This document shows positions 26,063-34,448 of a stretch of 64,000 nucleotides of DNA, piece after piece. Made by a program: the position numbers and the translations under genes. The stretch comes from Escherichia phage Murica, in the sequence record NC_041871.1, one strand, 5' to 3'. Each line of letters starts with the position of its first letter. Positions within the stretch are counted from its first letter, which is position 1. Below the pieces are notes generated by a model, which made no database searches, had not been told where the DNA came from, and saw only the letters and a list, made by a program, of their open reading frames with translations.

Positions 26063-27610
26063 TTAGATAAAACGCTTGAACATAGAAGGTGATGAGATTG
26101 ATGGAATCACACAAGGAAGTGCTACCTCCTCTTTCTCCAGGAAATTAATCGCAGAAGCTACACAGTCTGCCCAGTCGTCTTTTCTGTTAAATGTTGATCT
26201 TTCTCCGTTGAATTTTTCAAGTTCAGTCAGAAATGCTTCCAGAGTATCAGGATGGAAACTGGATTTTACAATCCTCACCATTCCTTGTTGTGCAAGATTG
26301 GCAAAAGGTGAGAACCTTGTCAGTTTAGATTTGTTGGAAGGCATTGGGTCTTCTTCAACCCTGAACCCTTCGGCGAGCAAGGATCTGGATGAGGTTAAGA
26401 ACTCACTCTTACCTGCCTGACCAGGGTCCACAGAGAATACGATTATGCAATCATCACCATCAAACTGCGCCTGTTTCCTGATGATCACATCTCGTTCACC
26501 AGCCTTTTTACAGAACTTGCCTTCCAGACCTGTGGAATACCTCCCGTCATCCACGTTCTCAGGACAATAATCACCGGACAGGTAATAAAAGCCGTCGCTA
26601 TCTTTACTTACCTTAATACTGGCGGTAAAGTCAGGAAATTTATTACCGGAAGTTCTCTCGGTTCCTGCCTTATCCCATGCCCTGCAAGATACTGATCCAA
26701 TGGGTACTCTATCGGCATCACGAAGGAAAGATCTTTGAAAATAGTTTGCACCCTCAGGCTTTGCAAACCAGTTACCATGAAGAAGCTGAGCTTTTTCCAG
26801 TTCCGGCAGACCTTCAAGGAAAGCAAGGTATTCTGGGTTGTCTCTTAAGCAGACAGGATTATCGAATATTGTTGCGCCTATAAACGAGAATGACAACGGT
26901 CTTGGCTTGATCTCTACGCCAAGTCCGTTAACCGTGGTGTATTTCTCTATCAACTCTTCTTTAGAGTCTCCCCAGATAAATTCACCGTCGCGTCGGATAA
27001 AATATCTTTTCTTACCGCATTTCTCCGGATCTGGATACCCTTCATCGTCCAACCACCATCTAACCAGTTTGGCAAGCATGTGTTCTGAATCGGGGTTACA
27101 GCTGATAACCATTCTTGATGGATACTTTGACTGAGATCGCAGACGAGACATCAGATAGTCTATCTGCTCCCATTCGAACTGCGTGCCCTCATCGAAGCAA
27201 ACCATGGTGTACTCAAGCCCCTGATGGTTAAGCTTATCTTGTACATACTCCATATGGCAGTATTTTACAACAGCTCCCTTTTTGCTTCTATCCCACTTAC
27301 CAGTGTTCGGATCAAACCGTGGAAAAATGAACTTATGATCCTTCTCTCTGAACTTTGGCTTAATGTTTTCAGGCAGATCACTGTAAATAGCTACTGCTTT
27401 AGGCCATAGTCCACCCTCACCTTCCAACTGTGGGGTTGTTCTTCGGAACATAACCACAGAGCTGTGGGGGTCATCAATAATTTTAAGTGGCATCAACTGC
27501 AAGAGGAACGACTTGCCAGACCCTGCGGCACCGCCGATTACCAAAATATCTGCATCGTTTTCTAGGATCATCTTCTGCTTTTCAGAACACGGTCCGTAAA
27601 TCTTAGACAT
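26063..27610 (-). CDS. terL: terminase large subunit
   Basis: 515 aa; N-terminal Walker A GGAAGSGKS, ATPase then nuclease-domain organisation; strong RBS. Confidence 0.85.
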   Translation of the reverse strand: MSKIYGPCSEKQKMILENDADILVIGGAAGSGKSFLLQLMPLKIIDDPHSSVVMFRRTTPQLEGEGGLWPKAVAIYSDLPENIKPKFREKDHKFIFPRFDPNTGKWDRSKKGAVVKYCHMEYVQDKLNHQGLEYTMVCFDEGTQFEWEQIDYLMSRLRSQSKYPSRMVISCNPDSEHMLAKLVRWWLDDEGYPDPEKCGKKRYFIRRDGEFIWGDSKEELIEKYTTVNGLGVEIKPRPLSFSFIGATIFDNPVCLRDNPEYLAFLEGLPELEKAQLLHGNWFAKPEGANYFQRSFLRDADRVPIGSVSCRAWDKAGTERTSGNKFPDFTASIKVSKDSDGFYYLSGDYCPENVDDGRYSTGLEGKFCKKAGERDVIIRKQAQFDGDDCIIVFSVDPGQAGKSEFLTSSRSLLAEGFRVEEDPMPSNKSKLTRFSPFANLAQQGMVRIVKSSFHPDTLEAFLTELEKFNGERSTFNRKDDWADCVASAINFLEKEEVALPCVIPSISSPSMFKRFI

Positions 27611-27897
27611 TAACCTCTCTCCTTTGGAAACAGTGTTCTAATATAGTCTTGCAAAATGATCAATTTAGCTCTATCATTGCTACAAGACAGATTATTATCC
27701 CTCATAATGCCAGAATTCACTGCATCTGGCGCACCTTTCTTCAAAGGCATAGCTTTAGCAGGTGGTTTCATGGCACCTTCCGGGGGTTTAACAATCAACC
27801 TTCCTACATCCGGAGGGTCAATCTTGTATTCTCTCTCAACGCTGGTTGCACACCCACATAATAACAAGCACACAATAAACAGTGTAGCAACTCTCAT
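27610..27897 (-). CDS. outer-membrane spanin lipoprotein (Rz1-like)
   Basis: 95 aa; signal peptide with lipobox LLCGC, Pro-rich mature part; coupled to the upstream i-spanin. Confidence 0.6.
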   Translation of the reverse strand: MRVATLFIVCLLLCGCATSVEREYKIDPPDVGRLIVKPPEGAMKPPAKAMPLKKGAPDAVNSGIMRDNNLSCSNDRAKLIILQDYIRTLFPKERG

Positions 27898-28292
27898 CTA
27901 CCCTCCTGATTAATACTCTCATTATAAATATCTATAAGCTGATCAGGAAGTGTTGACTTCTTACCCTCAGGTGACTGGAGGTAAATAATCTGCTTTTCTT
28001 TACCTGCCTTCTCAGCCATATTTAATTTATCCTGTAGATCAGAAAGGGATTTTTCAAGGTTTTTAACCTCCTCTGCGTGGCCCATTTTAATTTTGTCGGC
28101 CTGCTTTTGTTGCTGATCAAGGATCCGTTCCCACTTTAACTCTGTTGCTGACACACCTTCTTGGTAGGCATCATTAAGCTTAGAGTTAAACCAATACACG
28201 GCCCCAAGATAAGCTGTACCTATCGCAGCTGCAAAAACTAAACCTTTTATGATCCCTCTATACCTGCTCAGCCATGTTAAAACTGAAATCAT
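27894..28292 (-). CDS. inner-membrane spanin (Rz-like)
   Basis: 132 aa; N-terminal TM helix then charged coiled-coil region; overlaps the o-spanin start. Confidence 0.6.
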   Translation of the reverse strand: MISVLTWLSRYRGIIKGLVFAAAIGTAYLGAVYWFNSKLNDAYQEGVSATELKWERILDQQQKQADKIKMGHAEEVKNLEKSLSDLQDKLNMAEKAGKEKQIIYLQSPEGKKSTLPDQLIDIYNESINQEGR

Positions 28293-28304
28293 TTTAAGGC
28301 TCCA

Positions 28305-28340
28305 GAAACGAAAAAACCCCGCAGCTATACAGCTAACGGG
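28305..28340 (-). terminator. rho-independent terminator upstream of the spanin genes
   Basis: CCCCGTTAGCT..AGCTGCGGGG hairpin followed by TTTTTTCGTTTC on the minus strand. Confidence 0.5.
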
Positions 28341-28397
28341 GCGGGTTAAAATTGAGTAACCTAAATAGATCGAAACTAACTAAAAGGAGACTAATAC

Positions 28398-28667
28398 TTA
28401 TCGAGGCACTCGGTGGATGATTCTAACAGTAACTGCGTTTTCATTCATCAAGTATGCATCTACATCTCTGTAAATATAAAACTTCTGCTCACTATCAACA
28501 ACACAAGCTACCGCCCCTTCAGAGTTGTCTTCAAAAAAGACCACCACTGCATCGCAGCTGAGTTCATGATATGACTCTCGAAGATTTACAGCCAGAGGAT
28601 TGAAATCGTCACGAAAATCTACGGTATGGGTTGGATTTACACGCTCTACAATTTTAAGTGTATACAT
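28398..28667 (-). CDS. hypothetical protein
   Basis: ORF track 28398..28757 trimmed to ATG at 28665-28667 (AAGGAAC RBS); the longer form would overlap tRNA-Pro. Confidence 0.45.
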   Translation of the reverse strand: MYTLKIVERVNPTHTVDFRDDFNPLAVNLRESYHELSCDAVVVFFEDNSEGAVACVVDSEQKFYIYRDVDAYLMNENAVTVRIIHRVPR

Positions 28668-28713
28668 TTTAAAGGTTCCTTTTGTTTGTATATGTTTAAA
28701 GTATAACTGAAAG

Positions 28714-28790
28714 TGGTCTCCACGGAGTGATTCGAACACTCGACCTCCTGATCCCAAATCAGGCGCTCTACCAAGCTGAGCTACGCGGAG
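28714..28790 (-). tRNA. tRNA-Pro (anticodon UGG)
   Basis: cloverleaf folded by hand: 7-bp acceptor, T-loop TTCGAAT, anticodon loop TTTGGGA, encoded CCA. Confidence 0.8.
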
Positions 28791-28801
28791 TATTTATTAT
28801 T

Positions 28802-28876
28802 TGGTGGCCCTGGGTGGAATTGAACCACCGTCTGGCGATTATGAGTCGCTTGCTTGAACCTTCCAGCTACAGGGCC
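28802..28876 (-). tRNA. tRNA-Met (anticodon CAU; could be lysidine-modified Ile)
   Basis: acceptor GGCCCTG/CAGGGCC, anticodon loop CTCATAA, T-loop TTCAATT, encoded CCA. Confidence 0.75.
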
Positions 28877-28877
28877 T

Positions 28878-28953
28878 TGGTGCTGATGGCAGGACTTGAA
28901 CCTACAACCTATTGATTACAAATCAATTGCACTACCGATTGTGCTACATCAGC
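28878..28953 (-). tRNA. tRNA-Thr (anticodon UGU)
   Basis: acceptor GCTGATG/CATCAGC, anticodon stem ATTGA/TCAAT with loop TTTGTAA, T-loop TTCAAGT, CCA. Confidence 0.8.
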
Positions 28954-28960
28954 AAAAAGG

Positions 28961-29057
28961 TGCTAGGTGATGGAATCGAACCACCTATGTATTCAACGAC
29001 TACCTCGTCTATTTTCAGGATTAAAAATCCTCGCCCTTGCCAAAGGGCTTACCTAGC
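28961..29057 (-). tRNA. atypical 97-nt tRNA-like element (anticodon unresolved, possibly UUU; very long variable region)
   Basis: perfect 7-bp acceptor pairing GCTAGGT/ACCTAGC, canonical T-arm GGTGG-TTCGATT-CCATC and D-arm, but 65 nt between; no encoded CCA. Confidence 0.45.
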
Positions 29058-29155
29058 TCAGTATGTTGACCATGTTGCTAGTCGGCGATGACGACTGTAA
29101 CATTTGATAATCCGGTTCTGCTTCCGGCTTTCGCTTAATTACAAGGTCAACAATG

Positions 29156-29246
29156 TGGCGGAGAGTAATGGAATCGAACCATCATCGAGTCATCCTCAAC
29201 GGGACGGTTTTCAAGACCGCTTGAGCACCATTGCTCCCTACCCTCC
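29156..29246 (-). tRNA. tRNA-Ser (anticodon UGA), type II
   Basis: 91 nt, acceptor GGAGGGT/ACTCTCC, anticodon loop CTTGAAA, long variable arm, T-loop TTCGATT, CCA. Confidence 0.8.
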
Positions 29247-29360
29247 TTTATAAATTATACTGATAATGACACTGATTTTCGAGCAGTTAGTGACTAGTAT
29301 AAACGACGATAAATATCAATGCCATTATCTGTATTATTTATGCATCTAAAAATATAAATT

Positions 29361-29447
29361 TGGTGGGGAGTGGTGGAGTCGAACCACCCGAGTCGCAATG
29401 ACAATAGATTTACAGTCTACACCGCTACCTCTACGGGATAACTCCCC
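29361..29447 (-). tRNA. tRNA-Tyr (anticodon GUA), type II
   Basis: 87 nt, acceptor GGGGAGT/ACTCCCC, anticodon loop CTGTAAA, long variable arm, T-loop TTCGACT, CCA. Confidence 0.8.
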
Positions 29448-29451
29448 AATT

Positions 29452-29526
29452 TGGCACCCCGTACTGGACTCGAACCAGTGTCAACGGCTTAGAAGGCCGC
29501 TGCTTTATCCACTAAGCTAACAGGGC
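29452..29526 (-). tRNA. tRNA-Arg (anticodon UCU)
   Basis: 75 nt, anticodon loop CTTCTAA, T-arm ACTGG-TTCGAGT-CCAGT, acceptor with two G-U pairs, CCA. Confidence 0.75.
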
Positions 29527-29622
29527 ACTGGGTGGCTTTCTTTTACACCTTAGCCGCCAGAAAAGGTGGGAGACCATGTTTACAATATTACACTGTTAAG
29601 CAAAGTTTGTCAAGAAAATATT

Positions 29623-29961
29623 TTAGCTATTGCTAACAGGCTGTATTTCTGTAGTAAATGGCATAAAAGGTGCTGGTTTTTCAGCCTCTTCCACTACCAC
29701 CTCTTCCTCTTCACCAAACATCTCATCATATTCTTCCTGCATTCGGTCTGCCTTATCAAGAACATACTCTGCAATGCTTTGACGAATATTTTGTTTGGTT
29801 TTCGGGTCCAACATCAGCTCTCTTAAAACTTTGTGAGCTTCTGGAACCATCGCTATAAAAGATTCCTTCATATCAAGGATGTTCTTCTCTAGCTGAATGG
29901 CGTTGGACTCCTCTTTCAGAGGTCTGCCTCTACGGCGACGCTTTTTAGTTGTATCCGCCAT
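29623..29961 (-). CDS. small protein with N-terminal AT-hook-like basic motif (KKRRRRGRP) and acidic C-terminus
   Basis: ORF track 29623..30081 trimmed to the ATG at 29959-29961, preceded by GGAGGAAAC. Confidence 0.45.
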   Translation of the reverse strand: MADTTKKRRRRGRPLKEESNAIQLEKNILDMKESFIAMVPEAHKVLRELMLDPKTKQNIRQSIAEYVLDKADRMQEEYDEMFGEEEEVVVEEAEKPAPFMPFTTEIQPVSNS

Positions 29962-30305
29962 GTTTCCTCCATTATCACGTGATAGGTGGATTTTATCATA
30001 GCAAATACTGATTGTCAAGTTCGCCGCAGGGTGGTATTCCCTGCGACTTGTCCAGCGTCCTGGACCAGCAAGACCCAACAAGTGGGTTACCAGAGCCCAT
30101 TACCGCACTTTGGCTCGACCTTATTACAGGTTGGCCGGGGTCACATCGTCATGTGCTGGCTGCCCCTACCATTTTAAGTGTGGTGCACTATCAAGCCCTC
30201 TAAGGGGAACTCAGCCTTCTCCGAACCCTGTTTCAAAGCATCCGGAGATAAAGCCATCAAATTCATCTTTAAATTGGATATTCATCATGATACACGAAAA
30301 CAACC

Positions 30306-30548
30306 TCATTGTAAAGCACAAATAAATAAAACATACTTAATTTGTTTGTTATCAGGCTCAGGGTAGAAGTAGAAGATCTTGCTATCACCGATCTGAACAC
30401 CACCATCCCAACAGCATAGCCCATAACCAGTATTCATACAAGCTAAGTCGTTGGCAAAATCTATTGCATCATCCAGTGCACGAAATTCACCTTCATCTTC
30501 TAAATAATCCTCATTCATGGAACGAAAAACGAGCTTAACCTTAAACAT
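30306..30548 (-). CDS. hypothetical small protein
   Basis: 80-aa ORF, ATG start, weak RBS. Confidence 0.35.
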   Translation of the reverse strand: MFKVKLVFRSMNEDYLEDEGEFRALDDAIDFANDLACMNTGYGLCCWDGGVQIGDSKIFYFYPEPDNKQIKYVLFICALQ

Positions 30549-30624
30549 AGCATTACCTGTAGACCTCGTAAGTTAAAATTGCATCACATCATATTGCAGA
30601 TCTTATCAGGTAACACTATTTTTG

Positions 30625-30834
30625 TCAACAGATTCCGGCCTTATCCTTCCTGTCTGCGTATTCTTTAATCGCAACCTCATCTGCATTAGTGACCAGGTCT
30701 TCAAAGTAACTCTCAAGCTCCTCGTCAATGTCAGGAGACCAGCTCTTTTTCCTGTCAGTGTGAATTGCAGACTTGTTGAACTTATTACAGTTCTTTGCTA
30801 CCGGGTTGTTCATTAAGCGCTCCTCAGCGTTCAT
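30625..30834 (-). CDS. hypothetical small protein
   Basis: 69-aa ORF, coupled to the upstream gene. Confidence 0.35.
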   Translation of the reverse strand: MNAEERLMNNPVAKNCNKFNKSAIHTDRKKSWSPDIDEELESYFEDLVTNADEVAIKEYADRKDKAGIC

Positions 30835-31402
30835 AGTAAATCTTATTTAACATTACCTCATCCTTTGCAGAAAGGATATCAAGATATGCATCACCAAATC
30901 TTCCTGCAACAACCTCTGCATGATACATCACTTCGTTAACATCGTCAAGAGTGATAACCGGATGACCATATCTTTCTGAATATTGTCTCAGGGTGCGATG
31001 TAACGAGTCGTCATCATATGCAGACTTTTTAATATCACAAACACGACGAATAGCCTTGATGTCGAAAAAACCTGTGCGATACCACCCAAGAAAAAGGTTT
31101 CGTGCAGTGTCAACATCTACATTGATACCATCAAGAACCTTATCTACAAGATAGCTGTCATCCTTTGGACCAGCGTCCTTAGTGCGAATGTAGTTGCCAT
31201 CTTTTCCAGGCGACATCTCCTTCTCATCCCCAACATGCATGCCATCATTTGGCGGTGTTAGCCACTTATCCGGATGCTTACGATCACGAGCGTTAGAATG
31301 ATTACGCTGGAAACCTGGCTTCCACTTGAAAGTTTTCTCCATCTGTTCTTCATTCTGATAACGTTTTGCAATCTTTTCACGGTCATCTTTGCGTGGACTC
31401 AT
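30824..31402 (-). CDS. hypothetical protein
   Basis: 192-aa ORF with a strong GAGGAGG RBS. Confidence 0.5.
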   Translation of the reverse strand: MSPRKDDREKIAKRYQNEEQMEKTFKWKPGFQRNHSNARDRKHPDKWLTPPNDGMHVGDEKEMSPGKDGNYIRTKDAGPKDDSYLVDKVLDGINVDVDTARNLFLGWYRTGFFDIKAIRRVCDIKKSAYDDDSLHRTLRQYSERYGHPVITLDDVNEVMYHAEVVAGRFGDAYLDILSAKDEVMLNKIYYER

Positions 31403-31884
31403 AGCTGCCTCCTCTTCAAGTTATAGAAAAACTCGCTGTATCGCTTTGTAACGAGCTTTTCTATCAAACTGGTGCGATTGCCTTACTTGGTATAGTTTAT
31501 ATGGCTGTGGAGCGATTTAGGGGCCTCATTGTCCGTTTCCACACATAAACTTTATCCAAACTCGCGCGGGAGGCTCTCAACCGACTCCTTACGGCGCTGG
31601 CAAGCTTTCGTCGGTGGTCCACATTAGTGCTCGGCCTTTGGCCTGCGCCGCTTCGCTCCCACACATGTTAACAGACCTGCATGTGTGCACTATGGAGGCC
31701 CGGCATCTCGCCCCTCGTAGGCGAGTGCCAATGAAGGGCCGACACTACCTATAGAAAGTAATAAATTTAAAACATGGTACTTAGGATCTAGTATATTCTA
31801 CATAAGTTAAGTATATGTACTTAGTACCATAAGTACTAGATCTTTTATTTTTTATTATTTAGTTATTTTAGTTATATTCTTTAT

Positions 31885-31967
31885 GTGTCCGTATCACGGA
31901 CAGTTAGTGTCCGTATTACGGGCAGATGTGTCCGCGTGACGGACAGTGGTGTCCGTATCACGGACAG
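31885..31967. repeat. four tandem copies of a palindromic 19-bp iteron (GTGTCCGTATCACGGACAG), period 21-22 bp
   Basis: copies at 31885-31903, 31907-31925, 31928-31946 and 31949-31967; each contains inverted half-sites GTCCG-N5-CGGAC. Confidence 0.85.
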
Positions 31968-32041
31968 TTAATAGTTTCTGTTCCATGGTGAACATAAAAC
32001 ATACAAACCCTTATAGTACAGATATTTAAGTTTTTACTGGT

Positions 32042-32392
32042 CTAACCAGTTGTTGACATTCGAATAACTTCTTCTGGTGGCAAAACTTTGGAAAATGTGC
32101 ATCTTTTACCTCTCCCTTGTGTGGATGTTTCAACCACTCCTGCACATTCTAAAGTTTTAACGCACGCTGCTGCTTTTGTTTTCTTTATCCCAACATCTGC
32201 TGCAATTTTCCTTGTGCTTGGTGTGAAGCGGGAATTTCCTCCAAGCTTATACCAGTTGTGCAGGTAGCAGTATACAATCTTGTCATACAAGTCAAGAACA
32301 ACAACCTCCCCAGTTGTGTCATTCAAAACTTTTGACATAGATAGTATTTCAAGGGGGACTTTAAGATATAGCAGCTTATCCCCATCTTTCAT
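32042..32392 (-). CDS. putative helix-turn-helix DNA-binding protein
   Basis: 116 aa with AGGAGAT RBS; HTH-like segment STRKIAADVGIKKTKAAACVKTLECAGVV; lies next to the iteron array. Confidence 0.4.
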   Translation of the reverse strand: MKDGDKLLYLKVPLEILSMSKVLNDTTGEVVVLDLYDKIVYCYLHNWYKLGGNSRFTPSTRKIAADVGIKKTKAAACVKTLECAGVVETSTQGRGKRCTFSKVLPPEEVIRMSTTG

Positions 32393-32439
32393 ATCTCCTG
32401 ATTCTCCTTGTGTGGCAATTTTCTTTAAAATAGCAGGGA

Positions 32440-32994
32440 TTACTCCCTGCTGTCAATATCAAAACTCATTGCAATACGGTATGCCTCTTCTAATGGTAAG
32501 AGTCTCCCCCACACATCCCAACCGACATCAAGCTGCCTGCCAAACAACTGTTGTGTGGTTCCGTGAGCATGACCGAACAGTTGGACTGATCCGTGAGGCT
32601 TTCTGTTCCACTTTGCAAACTGGTAATGGCTCATACAGATCAAATTCTTGTTGTGGCGAAGCTCGTAATAATCTACAACCTCATGACCGAACTCTTTCAT
32701 AATTCTGACAGTCGTCCTTGTGTCATGGTTGCCACGAACAAGAATAATATGTCCGTTCAACATATTTAGAATATCTGGAAGTAAGTTGTTGATATTCTTA
32801 TCATTAGTGCACGCAATATCTCCCAGGTGGAACACAGTGTCTGCAGGTGACACAACGGAGTTCCACTCGGTGATGATTCCCGCATTCATACTGTCAAGAT
32901 TGTGATCATATTGAGATCTGTGTTTTTGACATGAATCAAACTCCATGACCCGCTGGTGGAGAAAGTGCGTATCGCTTGTTACAAAGTATTTCAT
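32440..32994 (-). CDS. calcineurin-like metallophosphoesterase (putative polynucleotide 2',3'-phosphatase)
   Basis: motifs SDTHF, GDIACT and GNHD; ORF track 32440..33099 trimmed to ATG at 32992-32994 with GAGGAA RBS. Confidence 0.65.
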   Translation of the reverse strand: MKYFVTSDTHFLHQRVMEFDSCQKHRSQYDHNLDSMNAGIITEWNSVVSPADTVFHLGDIACTNDKNINNLLPDILNMLNGHIILVRGNHDTRTTVRIMKEFGHEVVDYYELRHNKNLICMSHYQFAKWNRKPHGSVQLFGHAHGTTQQLFGRQLDVGWDVWGRLLPLEEAYRIAMSFDIDSRE

Positions 32995-33001
32995 ACATTC
33001 C

Positions 33002-33412
33002 TCATTTAAGTTTAATGCAGTTTTTAAGCTGGCGTTCCATACGATCCACAACCTTGTCTGGAACATCATGAATGCTTTTATTACCGTGGCGGTTTTCAAC
33101 CACGATTACGGTATAACTATACCCATGACTGATTGCCATGTCAACATATTCCTGCACATGTTTTTCTTTTGTAAACGTATTACTTACCACGATACGGTCG
33201 TATCCCATACGCATCATATCTTCTACGTTATCTTTGCACCATTTTGCTGCGAGTGTTACTTTACTTGCATCCCAGTTGTAATTGCCGTCATCGTCATACC
33301 AAAACATGTCATTCTCAAAATGTGGATACAGACCTTCTAAAGATAGCGCATTTGCCAGTGTTGATTTGCCAGACCCTGGCAGACCACGCACGATATATAG
33401 CATTTTAGACAT
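33002..33412 (-). CDS. P-loop polynucleotide 5'-kinase-like protein
   Basis: Walker A GLPGSGKST at the N-terminus; ORF track 33002..33469 trimmed to ATG at 33410-33412 with GGAGGATTGCT RBS. Confidence 0.6.
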   Translation of the reverse strand: MSKMLYIVRGLPGSGKSTLANALSLEGLYPHFENDMFWYDDDGNYNWDASKVTLAAKWCKDNVEDMMRMGYDRIVVSNTFTKEKHVQEYVDMAISHGYSYTVIVVENRHGNKSIHDVPDKVVDRMERQLKNCIKLK

Positions 33413-33440
33413 AGCAATCCTCCGTTTTAATTTTAATGAT

Positions 33441-33469
33441 AGTATACCTAACTGTTTTGTTAATTTCAA
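33441..33469 (-). promoter_or_regulatory. minus-strand early promoter (TTGAAA-17-TATACT) for the kinase/phosphatase operon
   Basis: -10 TATACT is the complement of 33441-33446, -35 TTGAAA of 33464-33469; RBS and ATG follow. Confidence 0.5.
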
Positions 33470-33472
33470 GTG

Positions 33473-33501
33473 TTGACACTAGGTTATTTGTGTGGCAGGA
33501 T
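33473..33501 (+). promoter_or_regulatory. plus-strand early promoter (TTGACA-17-TGTGG-CAGGAT, extended -10-like)
   Basis: consensus -35 TTGACA at 33473-33478; TG-containing element before a weak -10; back-to-back with the minus promoter. Confidence 0.4.
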
Positions 33502-33530
33502 AGACTGACAAAATGACAAATGAGGAACGT

Positions 33531-34448
33531 ATGATGAAGTATTTTAATGCAGATGACCTAGTAGACAAAGGTCTTGTAACCAGTCGGTATTATCCAGATC
33601 TTGGATTAAAGATCTATAAATATGCCAGAAAAGTATTCTACAACGATCTGTGGCATTTGTCTCCGCGTTTACTGGAGTGCCGAGGTATTGTTGTTGGCAA
33701 TGAGGGGAATGTTGTGGCATGGCCTTTCACAAAAGTATTCAACTTAGGAGAAAACTCCACCAACCTACCGGACAGTAAACTTGTTACTGCGGTAGAGAAA
33801 AAGAACGGATTCCTCGGTGTGGTATCATCTCATAAAGGTGAACTATTGTTCTCAACAACCGGGTCTCTTGATTCCCCATATTGTAACCTCGCAAAAGAAA
33901 CCATCAGGGAGCAATGTGGTAATTTAGATCTTATCAAGAAGGTTATGGGCAATGAAAACATGACATTCATGTTTGAAATTTGCCACCCTTCAGATCCGCA
34001 TATTGTTCAGGAAGATCATGGCGCATATTTGATAGGTTGCAGATATAATGATTCTGGAATAATGCTACCAGAAGCAGCTTTAGATGGGATTGCCAAATAC
34101 CTTGGTGCAAAACGTCCTCACACTGTGCGTGAAATTCCGTTCAGCTATGCAAAAGAATTAGCTGCAGAAACAAGAGGTGAAGGGTATATGATTCGTAAGC
34201 CTTACTACCCTTATGATCTGCAGCTGAAGATCAAGTCTCCATACTATCTGGCACGGAAGGCAGTAATGAGGGGTAAAGCTTGGAAGATTTGGGATGATGA
34301 TATCTTTAAACGTGTTGACGAAGAGTTTTACGGTATGGTAAAATTTATTCGTAGCAACTATACAGAAGATGTGTGGAATTGCTTATTAGAGCAGGAGCGT
34401 CGTGAGATACTGGACTACTATTTCCACAACGAGGACTATATGCAATGA
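33531..34448 (+). CDS. RNA ligase, T4 RnlA (Rnl1)-like
   Basis: N-terminal pattern LLECRGIVV...WPFTKVFNLGEN recalled as matching T4 RNA ligase 1; KxNG nucleotidyl-transferase motif (EKKNGF); start chosen at ATGATG after GAGGAA (track start 33513). Confidence 0.65.
   Translation: MMKYFNADDLVDKGLVTSRYYPDLGLKIYKYARKVFYNDLWHLSPRLLECRGIVVGNEGNVVAWPFTKVFNLGENSTNLPDSKLVTAVEKKNGFLGVVSSHKGELLFSTTGSLDSPYCNLAKETIREQCGNLDLIKKVMGNENMTFMFEICHPSDPHIVQEDHGAYLIGCRYNDSGIMLPEAALDGIAKYLGAKRPHTVREIPFSYAKELAAETRGEGYMIRKPYYPYDLQLKIKSPYYLARKAVMRGKAWKIWDDDIFKRVDEEFYGMVKFIRSNYTEDVWNCLLEQERREILDYYFHNEDYMQ

Follow-up and report, generated by a model that had tools for sequence, protein, structure and literature searches.

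The genome of Escherichia phage Murica (NC_041871.1) was analysed over a stretch of 64,000 nucleotides, called here the window, in which an array of four tandem palindromic repeats (iterons) lies between two genes of the minus strand. These genes correspond to ORF79 and ORF77 (30824..31402, -) of phage rV5 and delimit a 639-bp intergenic region at positions 31403-32041. We discuss this locus as a candidate accessory replication origin. The region is 100% identical to that of Escherichia phage vB_EcoM-Pr121LW and 88-98% identical to that of 116 other records of Vequintavirus (rV5-like myoviruses); outside Vequintavirus, no match to it was found among 50,697 phage records. Whole-genome counts were made on the complete Pr121LW genome (134,575 bp), in which the record position is 71761 - p for a window position p. 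The leftward transcription unit 81->27, which starts at a divergent point near 33.48 kb, comprises ORF79 and ORF77 as well as the array. Following the direction of this unit, one finds the promoter of ORF79, the ORF79 gene, a 71-bp spacer, the four iterons, an AT-rich block (AT block), a GC-rich block (GC block) and the leader of ORF77 (Table 1); transcription from the ORF79 promoter proceeds leftward across the array. A small helix-turn-helix (HTH) gene and an AT-rich block had been placed beside the array by a prediction made earlier from the sequence alone (the original prediction), and both are present.

Table 1. Features of the intergenic region and of the adjoining ORF79 gene, in window coordinates.
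Feature	Coordinates	Strand	Basis or remark
ORF79 gene (rV5 ORF79 / bas54_0212)	32042..32392	-	ORF; 116-aa winged-helix protein
sigma-70-type promoter of the ORF79 gene, TTGACA-18-TATTTT with TG	32427..32456	-	promoter scan; P76 in the rV5 annotation
variable spacer, ORF79 stop codon to array	31971..32041	.	diversity 0.120, highest of all segments
array of four 21-22-bp iterons	31885..31970	.	repeat search and motif scan
AT-rich block, 79.9% A+T, 139 bp, proposed DNA-unwinding element	31746..31884	.	composition, duplex stability
GATCTTTTATTTT, exact match to the E. coli oriC 13-mer consensus GATCTnTTnTTTT	31839..31851	+	motif search
conserved GC-rich block, 57% G+C, 249 bp	31497..31745	.	composition; membership in the element uncertain

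The repeat search detected one four-copy family, with 22-nt units at 31885, 31907, 31928 and 31949 (spacing 22, 21 and 21 bp) that are 77-100% identical to the reference copy, in agreement with the starts and spacing predicted. Each unit contains the 17-bp palindromic core TGTCCG-N5-CGGACA (31886-31902, 31908-31924, 31929-31945 and 31950-31966), where the central N5 is TATCA, TATTA or CGTGA and where one half-site of unit 2 reads CGGGCA. The inverted repeat described in the original prediction as GTCCG/CGGAC is real, but its half-site comprises 6 bp and is one base longer on each side. With at most 3 mismatches, the 17-mer matches the window 9 times, 8 of these matches being the four sites read on both strands; shuffled sequences gave an expectation of 0.09, and 9 or more matches were reached in 0 of 100 shuffles. 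The genome-wide search for further copies, which had been proposed as a check, was run and reveals that the cluster is unique in the 134,575-bp genome, where only three isolated matches with 2 mismatches occur elsewhere. An additional half-site, TGTCCGT, had been reported near 31529. It exists close to 31530 but is not meaningful, because the half-site hexamers are common (18 and 22 occurrences in the genome, the level of chance) and because this copy is not conserved, becoming TGTCAGT in isim, ECP26 and other phages. An iteron array has three or more units of about 17-22 bp, repeated in tandem and helically phased, as is the case here, and the semi-palindromic tandem form is a trait of the RepA_N type (PMC7145576). 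In some phage records the array is labelled merely "repeat_region".

Conservation of the array and of the adjacent blocks

Nucleotide diversity per segment was computed across 14 Vequintavirus genomes. The lowest values are those of the iteron half-sites (0.0096) and of the linkers between units (0.011), followed by the AT block (0.028), the central N5 (0.043), the GC block (0.049) and the third codon positions of ORF79 (0.084) and ORF77 (0.100). At the half-sites, diversity is about 10-fold lower than at synonymous sites (0.0096 versus 0.084-0.120, including the spacer that separates the array from the ORF79 stop codon). The half-sites are also more constrained than the first and second codon positions, whose diversity is 0.018-0.025. 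These values indicate that the half-sites are under purifying selection. The number of iterons differs by whole units only, the phasing being kept: most phages have four copies, FFH2, typing phage 4, nomine and BP9 have three, and typing phage 14 has six.

Conserved stems and a variable loop would also agree with an element acting in the RNA, in which the palindromes form tandem stem-loops of the ORF79 transcript and serve, for instance, to stabilise its 3' end, to direct its processing or to attenuate transcription. Transcription from the ORF79 promoter covers the region, no terminator was found, and the minus-strand RNA 31875-31985 folds at -43.2 kcal/mol (z = -6.7); however, the minimum-energy fold pairs neighbouring units and does not give four separate hairpins. 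The C-A mismatch of unit 2 in the transcribed strand is kept in 12 of the 14 phages with no compensatory change. Since hairpins need neither the conserved linkers nor the 21-22-bp phasing, and since the motif is also found inside protein-coding initiator genes (see below), we regard this explanation as highly improbable.

The AT block is the most AT-rich segment and the least stable duplex at 60, 100 and 140 bp, in the window as in the whole genome. At 100 bp its stability is -102.2 kcal/mol, against a mean of -133.6 (standard deviation 5.8) and a next lowest value of -108.5. On both strands of the window and of the 134.6-kb genome, GATCTTTTATTTT is the sole match to GATCTnTTnTTTT, which reviews of oriC give as the consensus of the E. 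coli 13-mer, and it is invariant in 8 relatives, with AGATCTTTTA found again in the AT blocks of 4MG and K54_rec4. An AT-rich unwinding element directly beside the repeats is characteristic of iteron origins, and the AT block occupies this position. The global minimum of the cumulative GC skew is located at window position 33454, 1.5 kb from the array. The AT block also contains the -10-like sequence ATGTAGAAT, which resembles the -10 of strong early promoters in phages 4MG and K54_rec4.

The GC block, in a genome of 43% G+C, has a core nearly invariant in the 14 phages, with indels of 18 nt and 3 nt. It was annotated as ORF78 in rV5, an annotation that is probably spurious. A structured RNA was also considered there, for which the fold z-scores (-0.8 and -1.9) and one compensatory pair in the alignment are weak evidence. 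Rfam at E<=1 over positions 27000-34000 gave just tRNAs and chance matches, and none for the GC block. Among the tRNAs, a 99-nt tRNA-like gene (28959-29057, -) lies in the tRNA cluster, with a four-base anticodon (atcc) according to ARAGORN and an Rfam tRNA score of 35.5 bits. The corresponding cluster of phage Bas54 is annotated with a 97-nt tRNA-Lys, and the 99-nt gene may hold an intron or be an unusual tRNA.

Two other signals were recorded around the locus. A perfect palindrome with 8-bp arms, AGCAGGGA-TTAC-TCCCTGCT, is present at 32432-32451 between the -35 and the -10 of the ORF79 promoter; it overlaps the stop codon of the phosphoesterase gene and could be a terminator of this upstream gene or an operator of another factor. 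The motif GCTCGTTACA(A/G)AGC(G/T)ATACAG is found at 31436-31460 (-), directly upstream of the ribosome-binding site of ORF77, and again at 32969-32992. It also precedes the first operon gene in the phi92-like phage EmilieFrey (locus L017, 983-1007), and may be a phage-specific promoter or leader element.

The ORF79 protein and its relatives

ORF79 was compared with several profile databases. In PHROGs it matches phrog_12838, "replication initiation protein" (E 5e-80), and more weakly phrog_8102, 428 and 270, and all its PHROG relatives are replication initiation, O-like or DnaD-like families. Its Pfam scores are 27.4 bits for DUF6945 (PF22182, cut-off 28) and 24.5 bits for HTH_36 (cut-off 25), and NCBIfam gave no match. 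The homologues of rV5, FV3 and slur16 are already named "replication initiation protein" in RefSeq by family transfer. With phmmer, the closest PDB sequence is 4RO3 (E 3e-6, ORF79 residues 12-89). Single-sequence structure prediction reached a predicted local distance difference test (pLDDT) of 39, and AlphaFold with an alignment of 23 sequences reached 80.8. Foldseek with the ORF79 model placed 4ro3 first (TM 0.60-0.63, 29-30% identity), followed by 4pql and 5kbj, which are N-terminal domains of staphylococcal plasmid RepA and include a Rep-DNA complex; 4pt7, a related initiator structure, has rank 12. Generic winged-helix regulators (MepR, LexA, ArsR, CodY) are interleaved from rank 5. The model thus points to a winged-helix N-terminal domain of the RepA_N type, and ORF79 appears to be a winged helix of the origin-binding type that lacks the C-terminal domain of its relatives. 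We propose from these similarities that it is the iteron-binding protein, comparable to the N-terminal domain of RepA_N and O-like initiators. The gene of a cognate initiator is expected next to an iteron origin, and here the array begins 72 bp past the ORF79 stop codon.

A "split O gene", with ORF77 or the GC block as the detached C-terminal domain, was examined and rejected. No similarity to the C-terminal parts of O-like proteins was found, no remnant of a C-terminal initiator domain was detected in the intergenic region, and ORF77 is neutral in transposon-insertion sequencing (Tn-seq) whereas ORF79 is not.

The family of ORF79 is narrow. Searches by tblastn and blastn for ORF79 and the region in the 50,697 phage records recovered just 117 Vequintavirus records, and an exhaustive HMMER search of 1.84 billion representatives gave 8 matches, of which three (HTH_36 and/or DUF6945) looked real. 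Concerning the records themselves, 18 "Campylobacter phage" entries (MG0656xx, host C. jejuni) are 92-97% identical across the region, and their host labels look doubtful. A 97% identical ORF79 is also encoded at 102789-103136 of CP057073.1, a 137.6-kb "plasmid" (E. coli, cattle faeces) that is evidently a Vequintavirus genome deposited under a plasmid label.

Every ORF79 relative examined adjoins tandem repeats of its own, the sequence of which is lineage-specific. Seunavirus 4MG and three metagenomic relatives have, at a point of divergent transcription, a homologue of 105-114 aa (phrog_8102; 35% identity to ORF79 over 48 aa) with two TCAAnTTGAGnAnAGGCT-type repeats 23 bp apart and then an AT-rich block containing AGATCTTTTA, a sequence that recurs in the AT-rich block of K54_rec4. 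In Klebsiella phage K54_rec4 and Salmonella phage SSE121, a DnaD-like winged-helix gene (119-120 aa) is accompanied by two or three TCTAATTATTCCCnnnnAGGAATA repeats 24 bp apart and by a similar AT block. Homologues of 182-195 aa constitute a third group, with two ...AGGTACA repeats 22 bp apart beside an AT-rich stretch. These arrangements are consistent with cognate pairs of protein and site, but they do not separate an origin from an operator, because the repeats lie there at the promoter of the gene.

Beside the small winged-helix gene, SSE121 (locus L016, 1213-1773, -) and K54_rec4 (locus L015, 1012-1575, -) also encode a protein of 186-187 aa. It combines an N-terminal initiator-like winged helix with a C-terminal nuclease region of the T5orf172/GIY-YIG type, which is the architecture of ICP1 Odn, a nuclease directed against the PLE origin, which it cuts.

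The same iteron is found in distant phages. IMG/VR was scanned for two adjacent TGTCCG-N5-CGGACA units, and eight contigs were recovered, none of them Vequintavirus (G+C 49-70%), each with 3-7 tandem units at a period of 20-25 bp. Four loci were read in detail, and three further contigs are homologous to one of these four. In all four, the array is situated inside a gene of 284-387 aa, right after the N-terminal winged helix, and is followed by an AT-richer tract with short repeats, which is the layout of lambdoid in-gene origins. For three of the four proteins, PHROGs gave matches to replication-initiation, O-like or DnaD-like families, among them phrog_270, which ORF79 also matches weakly. 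Over 82 bp, one of the arrays (locus L030) has 78% identity with the window array, and it shares both centre types with it. The similarity between the ORF79 profile and the proteins with in-gene iterons is marginal; a common ancestry of the recognition module is plausible from these comparisons.

In a further reading, which we judge unlikely, Murica would have a "half" replication module, consisting of an initiator reduced to the origin-binding domain and of an array almost identical to those in the O-like genes of unrelated high-GC phages. This module would represent either a new type of origin, in which a bare DNA-binding domain suffices to open the DNA for the replisome of the phage, or a dominant-negative or decoy weapon against rival elements with the same iterons.

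Transposon insertions and the interpretation of the locus

Tn-seq of Bas54 (phage MaxBurger) is reported in the HIDEN-SEQ preprint; this phage and the window are 93% identical in the intergenic region. Insertions in the ORF79 gene and in the array have a common deficit of about 10-fold relative to their neighbours, which show counts of about 135-190 (Table 2). This deficit is not polar, as insertions farther downstream are neutral. The ORF79 count hardly differs between hosts, being 13.6 in E. coli K-12 and 12.5 in a clinical isolate.

Table 2. Published transposon insertions in Bas54 genes at and around the array.
ORF call	TA sites hit	Class	Mean count
bas54_0210	33/36	Non-essential	170.6
bas54_0211	26/27	Non-essential	139.9
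bas54_0212 (ORF79)	17/20	Intermediate	13.6
bas54_0213 (over the iterons)	4/7	Intermediate	18.1
bas54_0214 (in the GC block)	5/5	not classed	134.9 (neutral)
bas54_0215 (in the GC block)	4/6	Intermediate	78.4 (mild)
bas54_0216 (ORF77)	31/34	Non-essential	139.5

We favour, with about an even chance of being right, a reading in which the array is the initiator-binding part of an accessory origin of the iteron type, the initiator being reduced to its N-terminal domain. From the anatomy, conservation and homology of the locus, together with the genetic coupling and non-essentiality visible in the published insertion data, we infer that the protein binds the array, that the DNA melts and that DNA synthesis starts there. 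Dimers of the 116-aa winged-helix protein would bind the four palindromic sites, and the 21-22-bp spacing, equal to two helical turns, would align them on the same side of the helix. Together with the DNA they would form a complex that opens the adjacent AT block, probably aided by early transcription from the ORF79 promoter across the array, and the phage's own helicase-primase and polymerase would load at the opened block. As ORF79 corresponds to a DNA-binding N-terminal domain alone, another factor or the melted DNA would have to recruit the replisome. Such an origin would be accessory: inactivating the ORF79 gene or the array lowers fitness about 10-fold but is not lethal.

Several observations weigh against this reading. 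No DnaA boxes (TTWTNCACA) or integration host factor (IHF) sites (WATCAANNNNTTR) were found in 31403-32041; such sites are usual for iteron plasmids and unusual for phage origins. Both Pfam scores of ORF79 lie under the cut-offs, PF06970 (RepA_N) and Phage_rep_O are unmatched at E<=1, and winged-helix folds are common among repressors. The 116-aa protein ends after the winged helix and has no C-terminal helicase-recruiting domain. Its similarity to the proteins with in-gene iterons being marginal, the shared motif could be convergent. The authors of the rV5 genome found that skew switches coincide with switches of transcription direction. Finally, ORF79 (17 of 20 sites) and the array (4 of 7) tolerate insertions and neither is essential in Bas54, so that the array cannot be the sole indispensable origin. 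The HIDEN-SEQ authors describe a non-coding region of about 2.5 kb with zero insertions between the convergent bas54_0134 and 0135, which places an indispensable cis element elsewhere than at the array.

This insertion-free region corresponds to positions 92786-95297 of Bas54 (MZ501093.1; locus L028, 487-2998) and falls outside the window; in Pr121LW its counterpart is at the record ends. Over about 1 kb it has 31-36% G+C, with TGTAAACA-type units, ATAGTTGCC in both orientations and an exact 20-mer present twice. It contains the genome's second least stable duplex, lies near the maximum of the GC skew and gave no match in Rfam. The region is a candidate for an essential cis element, either a primary origin or a packaging (pac) site.

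The array itself could be imagined as a pac site or as a partition-type centromere bound by the small HTH protein, as both can contain repeated sites recognised by small HTH proteins. Circular permutation of the genome and a large terminase gene about 4 kb away would fit, but a pac site should be essential, the array is dispensable in the Tn-seq data, and a virulent phage needs no partition. Moreover, profile searches revealed no similarity of ORF79 to small terminase subunits or to ParB/ParR, and its gene, which is read from an early sigma-70 promoter, is surrounded by early genes of nucleic-acid metabolism. We find this possibility barely credible.

The original prediction had left open a replication origin or a cooperative operator. 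The second alternative, a transcriptional control element that starts no replication and whose four sites would be bound cooperatively by the winged-helix protein, is the main rival of the origin and in our opinion doubtful. The protein might prevent leftward transcription from the early ORF79 promoter from reading through into ORF77-74, the tRNAs and the late genes, as a roadblock or a repressor, for which the position of the array within the transcription unit is appropriate, or it might activate a promoter in the AT block, where the -10-like ATGTAGAAT is found. Helically phased palindromes also suit repressor dimers, and MepR, LexA, ArsR and CodY are in the fold list; the nearest relatives of the protein are nevertheless initiators and not regulators. 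In the Seunavirus-like phages the repeats precede the small winged-helix gene by 10-55 bp, the position of autoregulatory operators, whereas the array considered here is downstream of the HTH gene and away from its promoter. A regulator would fit the non-essential, intermediate Tn-seq phenotype. The promoter scan, however, detected no sigma-70-type promoter overlapping or adjoining the array, contrary to repressor operators of the lambda OR/OL type, and the terminator scan detected no terminator overlapping it. An autoregulatory site at the ORF79 promoter was also sought and rejected, as no iteron-like sequence is present there, only an unrelated palindrome. A control element would leave unexplained the proximity of the least stable duplex of the genome with its oriC-type 13-mer, as well as the in-gene arrays of the same motif in O-like initiator genes. 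The comparison therefore partly supports an origin over an operator, on the basis of the likeness of the protein, the unstable duplex with the 13-mer, the skew minimum, the shared motif and the Tn-seq coupling; the dispensability of both parts limits this preference. The two functions are not exclusive, because plasmid initiators often do both.

The absence of an effector domain in ORF79, together with the use of the same iteron motif by O-like initiators of other phages, could suggest competition or exclusion, with a module maintained for conflict and not for replication of the phage: the protein would be a dominant-negative binder of TGTCCG-N5-CGGACA origins in co-resident elements, or the array would titrate a rival initiator. 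There is a precedent in ICP1 Odn, where a phage RepA-like N-terminal domain is aimed at the origin of the PLE satellite, and Seunavirus and Mydovirus relatives encode a protein with a winged helix and T5orf172 beside the small winged-helix gene. The module is non-essential in the laboratory host, but the 10-fold fitness cost is already seen in E. coli K-12 and the count is alike in the clinical isolate. Targets in E. coli satellites or prophages were sought, and no similar array was found in 5,426 complete E. coli genomes, so that no target is known in the host range. As the strict conservation of the AT block and of the 13-mer would also remain unexplained, we consider competition very unlikely.

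Comparison with known replication origins

Skew analysis in the rV5 genome paper, made in search of the origin, gave just the switches of transcription direction, and beyond it we found in the literature no description of the array, of an unwinding element or of an origin of rV5-like phages. For these phages, which are in wide use as typing phages and biocontrol agents for strains such as E. coli O157 and whose origin was so far undefined, the accessory origin proposed here is a concrete candidate locus with a named protein partner. It would also account for a previously unremarked pair of "intermediate" calls in the Bas54 Tn-seq. If it is confirmed, origin binders resembling RepA_N proteins and PLE RepA are at work in large virulent phages of Gram-negative bacteria too, a DNA-binding domain that lacks the usual C-terminal domain is functional, and a defined cis element becomes available for phage-dependent replicons or phage engineering.

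The origin of phage lambda is composed of four 19-bp iterons, which are imperfect inverted repeats recognized by the dimeric initiator O, and of an AT-rich unwinding region directly after them; the number of iterons is 4 in lambda and 6 in Stx phages. The locus of Murica is similar, as it presents palindromic iterons and then an AT block in an early transcription unit, with the gene, the iterons and the AT block succeeding one another in the direction of transcription and with 3, 4 or 6 copies among the relatives. In contrast, the lambda origin is inside the O gene, between its two domains, whereas the array here is downstream of the ORF79 stop codon. The C-terminal domain of O recruits P-DnaB, but ORF79 has no second domain and no Phage_rep_O match. 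O and ori are required in lambda, while the module is dispensable according to the Bas54 Tn-seq. With the arrays of the eight viral contigs, which lie inside a winged-helix gene in the four read in detail, the array has the iteron sequence itself in common.

The nearest solved structure by sequence and by fold, 4RO3, is the N-terminal domain of RepA of the Vibrio cholerae satellite PLE (Barth et al., PMC7145576). This RepA, which belongs structurally to the RepA_N initiators, was shown experimentally to drive PLE replication and to bind semi-palindromic iterons in a non-coding origin (Barth et al., PMC7145576), and its DNA-binding domain and the origin co-vary as a module (PMC7145576, PMC8263062). 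In both systems the iterons are in non-coding DNA beside the gene. The PLE protein differs from ORF79, which is an N-terminal domain only, by its conserved C-terminal domain; PLE has three iterons of about 30 bp, and it is a helper-dependent satellite and not a 135-kb virulent phage. The RepA_N initiators of Firmicutes (RepA of pSK41 and pTZ2162; 4PQL, 5KBJ, 4PT7) provide the second-best fold matches, with the same winged-helix fold, which is dimeric in these initiators, and tandem semi-palindromic iterons. They belong, however, to another host and another type of replicon, and ORF79 has no significant Pfam RepA_N match. Their iterons are within repA and converge on a poly-A tract, unlike the centres TATCA, TATTA and CGTGA of the present array.

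In plasmid RK2 the iterons, an AT-rich region and a GC-rich region follow one another in this order, which is also that found at the array. Other traits shared with the iteron plasmids of Gram-negative bacteria (RK2 oriV, pPS10; PMC4980987) are the tandem iterons, the oriC-like 13-mer in the AT-rich region and the adjacent rep gene. Rep of these plasmids binds as a monomer with two winged-helix domains, whereas the palindromic sites of the array imply dimers, and the plasmids have DnaA boxes, which are absent here. The comparison with phage T4 concerns a large virulent myovirus with its own replisome. In T4 each origin consists of a promoter and an unwinding element that form an R-loop, with no iterons and no dedicated binding protein. 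Individual T4 origins are dispensable, since other origins and recombination-dependent replication substitute for them, and a redundancy of this kind would explain the non-lethal Tn-seq phenotype of the module. The kind of element proposed is well known, with examples in lambda, in iteron plasmids, in RepA_N replicons and in PLE. What is unusual in comparison with these systems is that the protein is reduced to a single domain and that the iteron sequence is common to distant high-GC phages.

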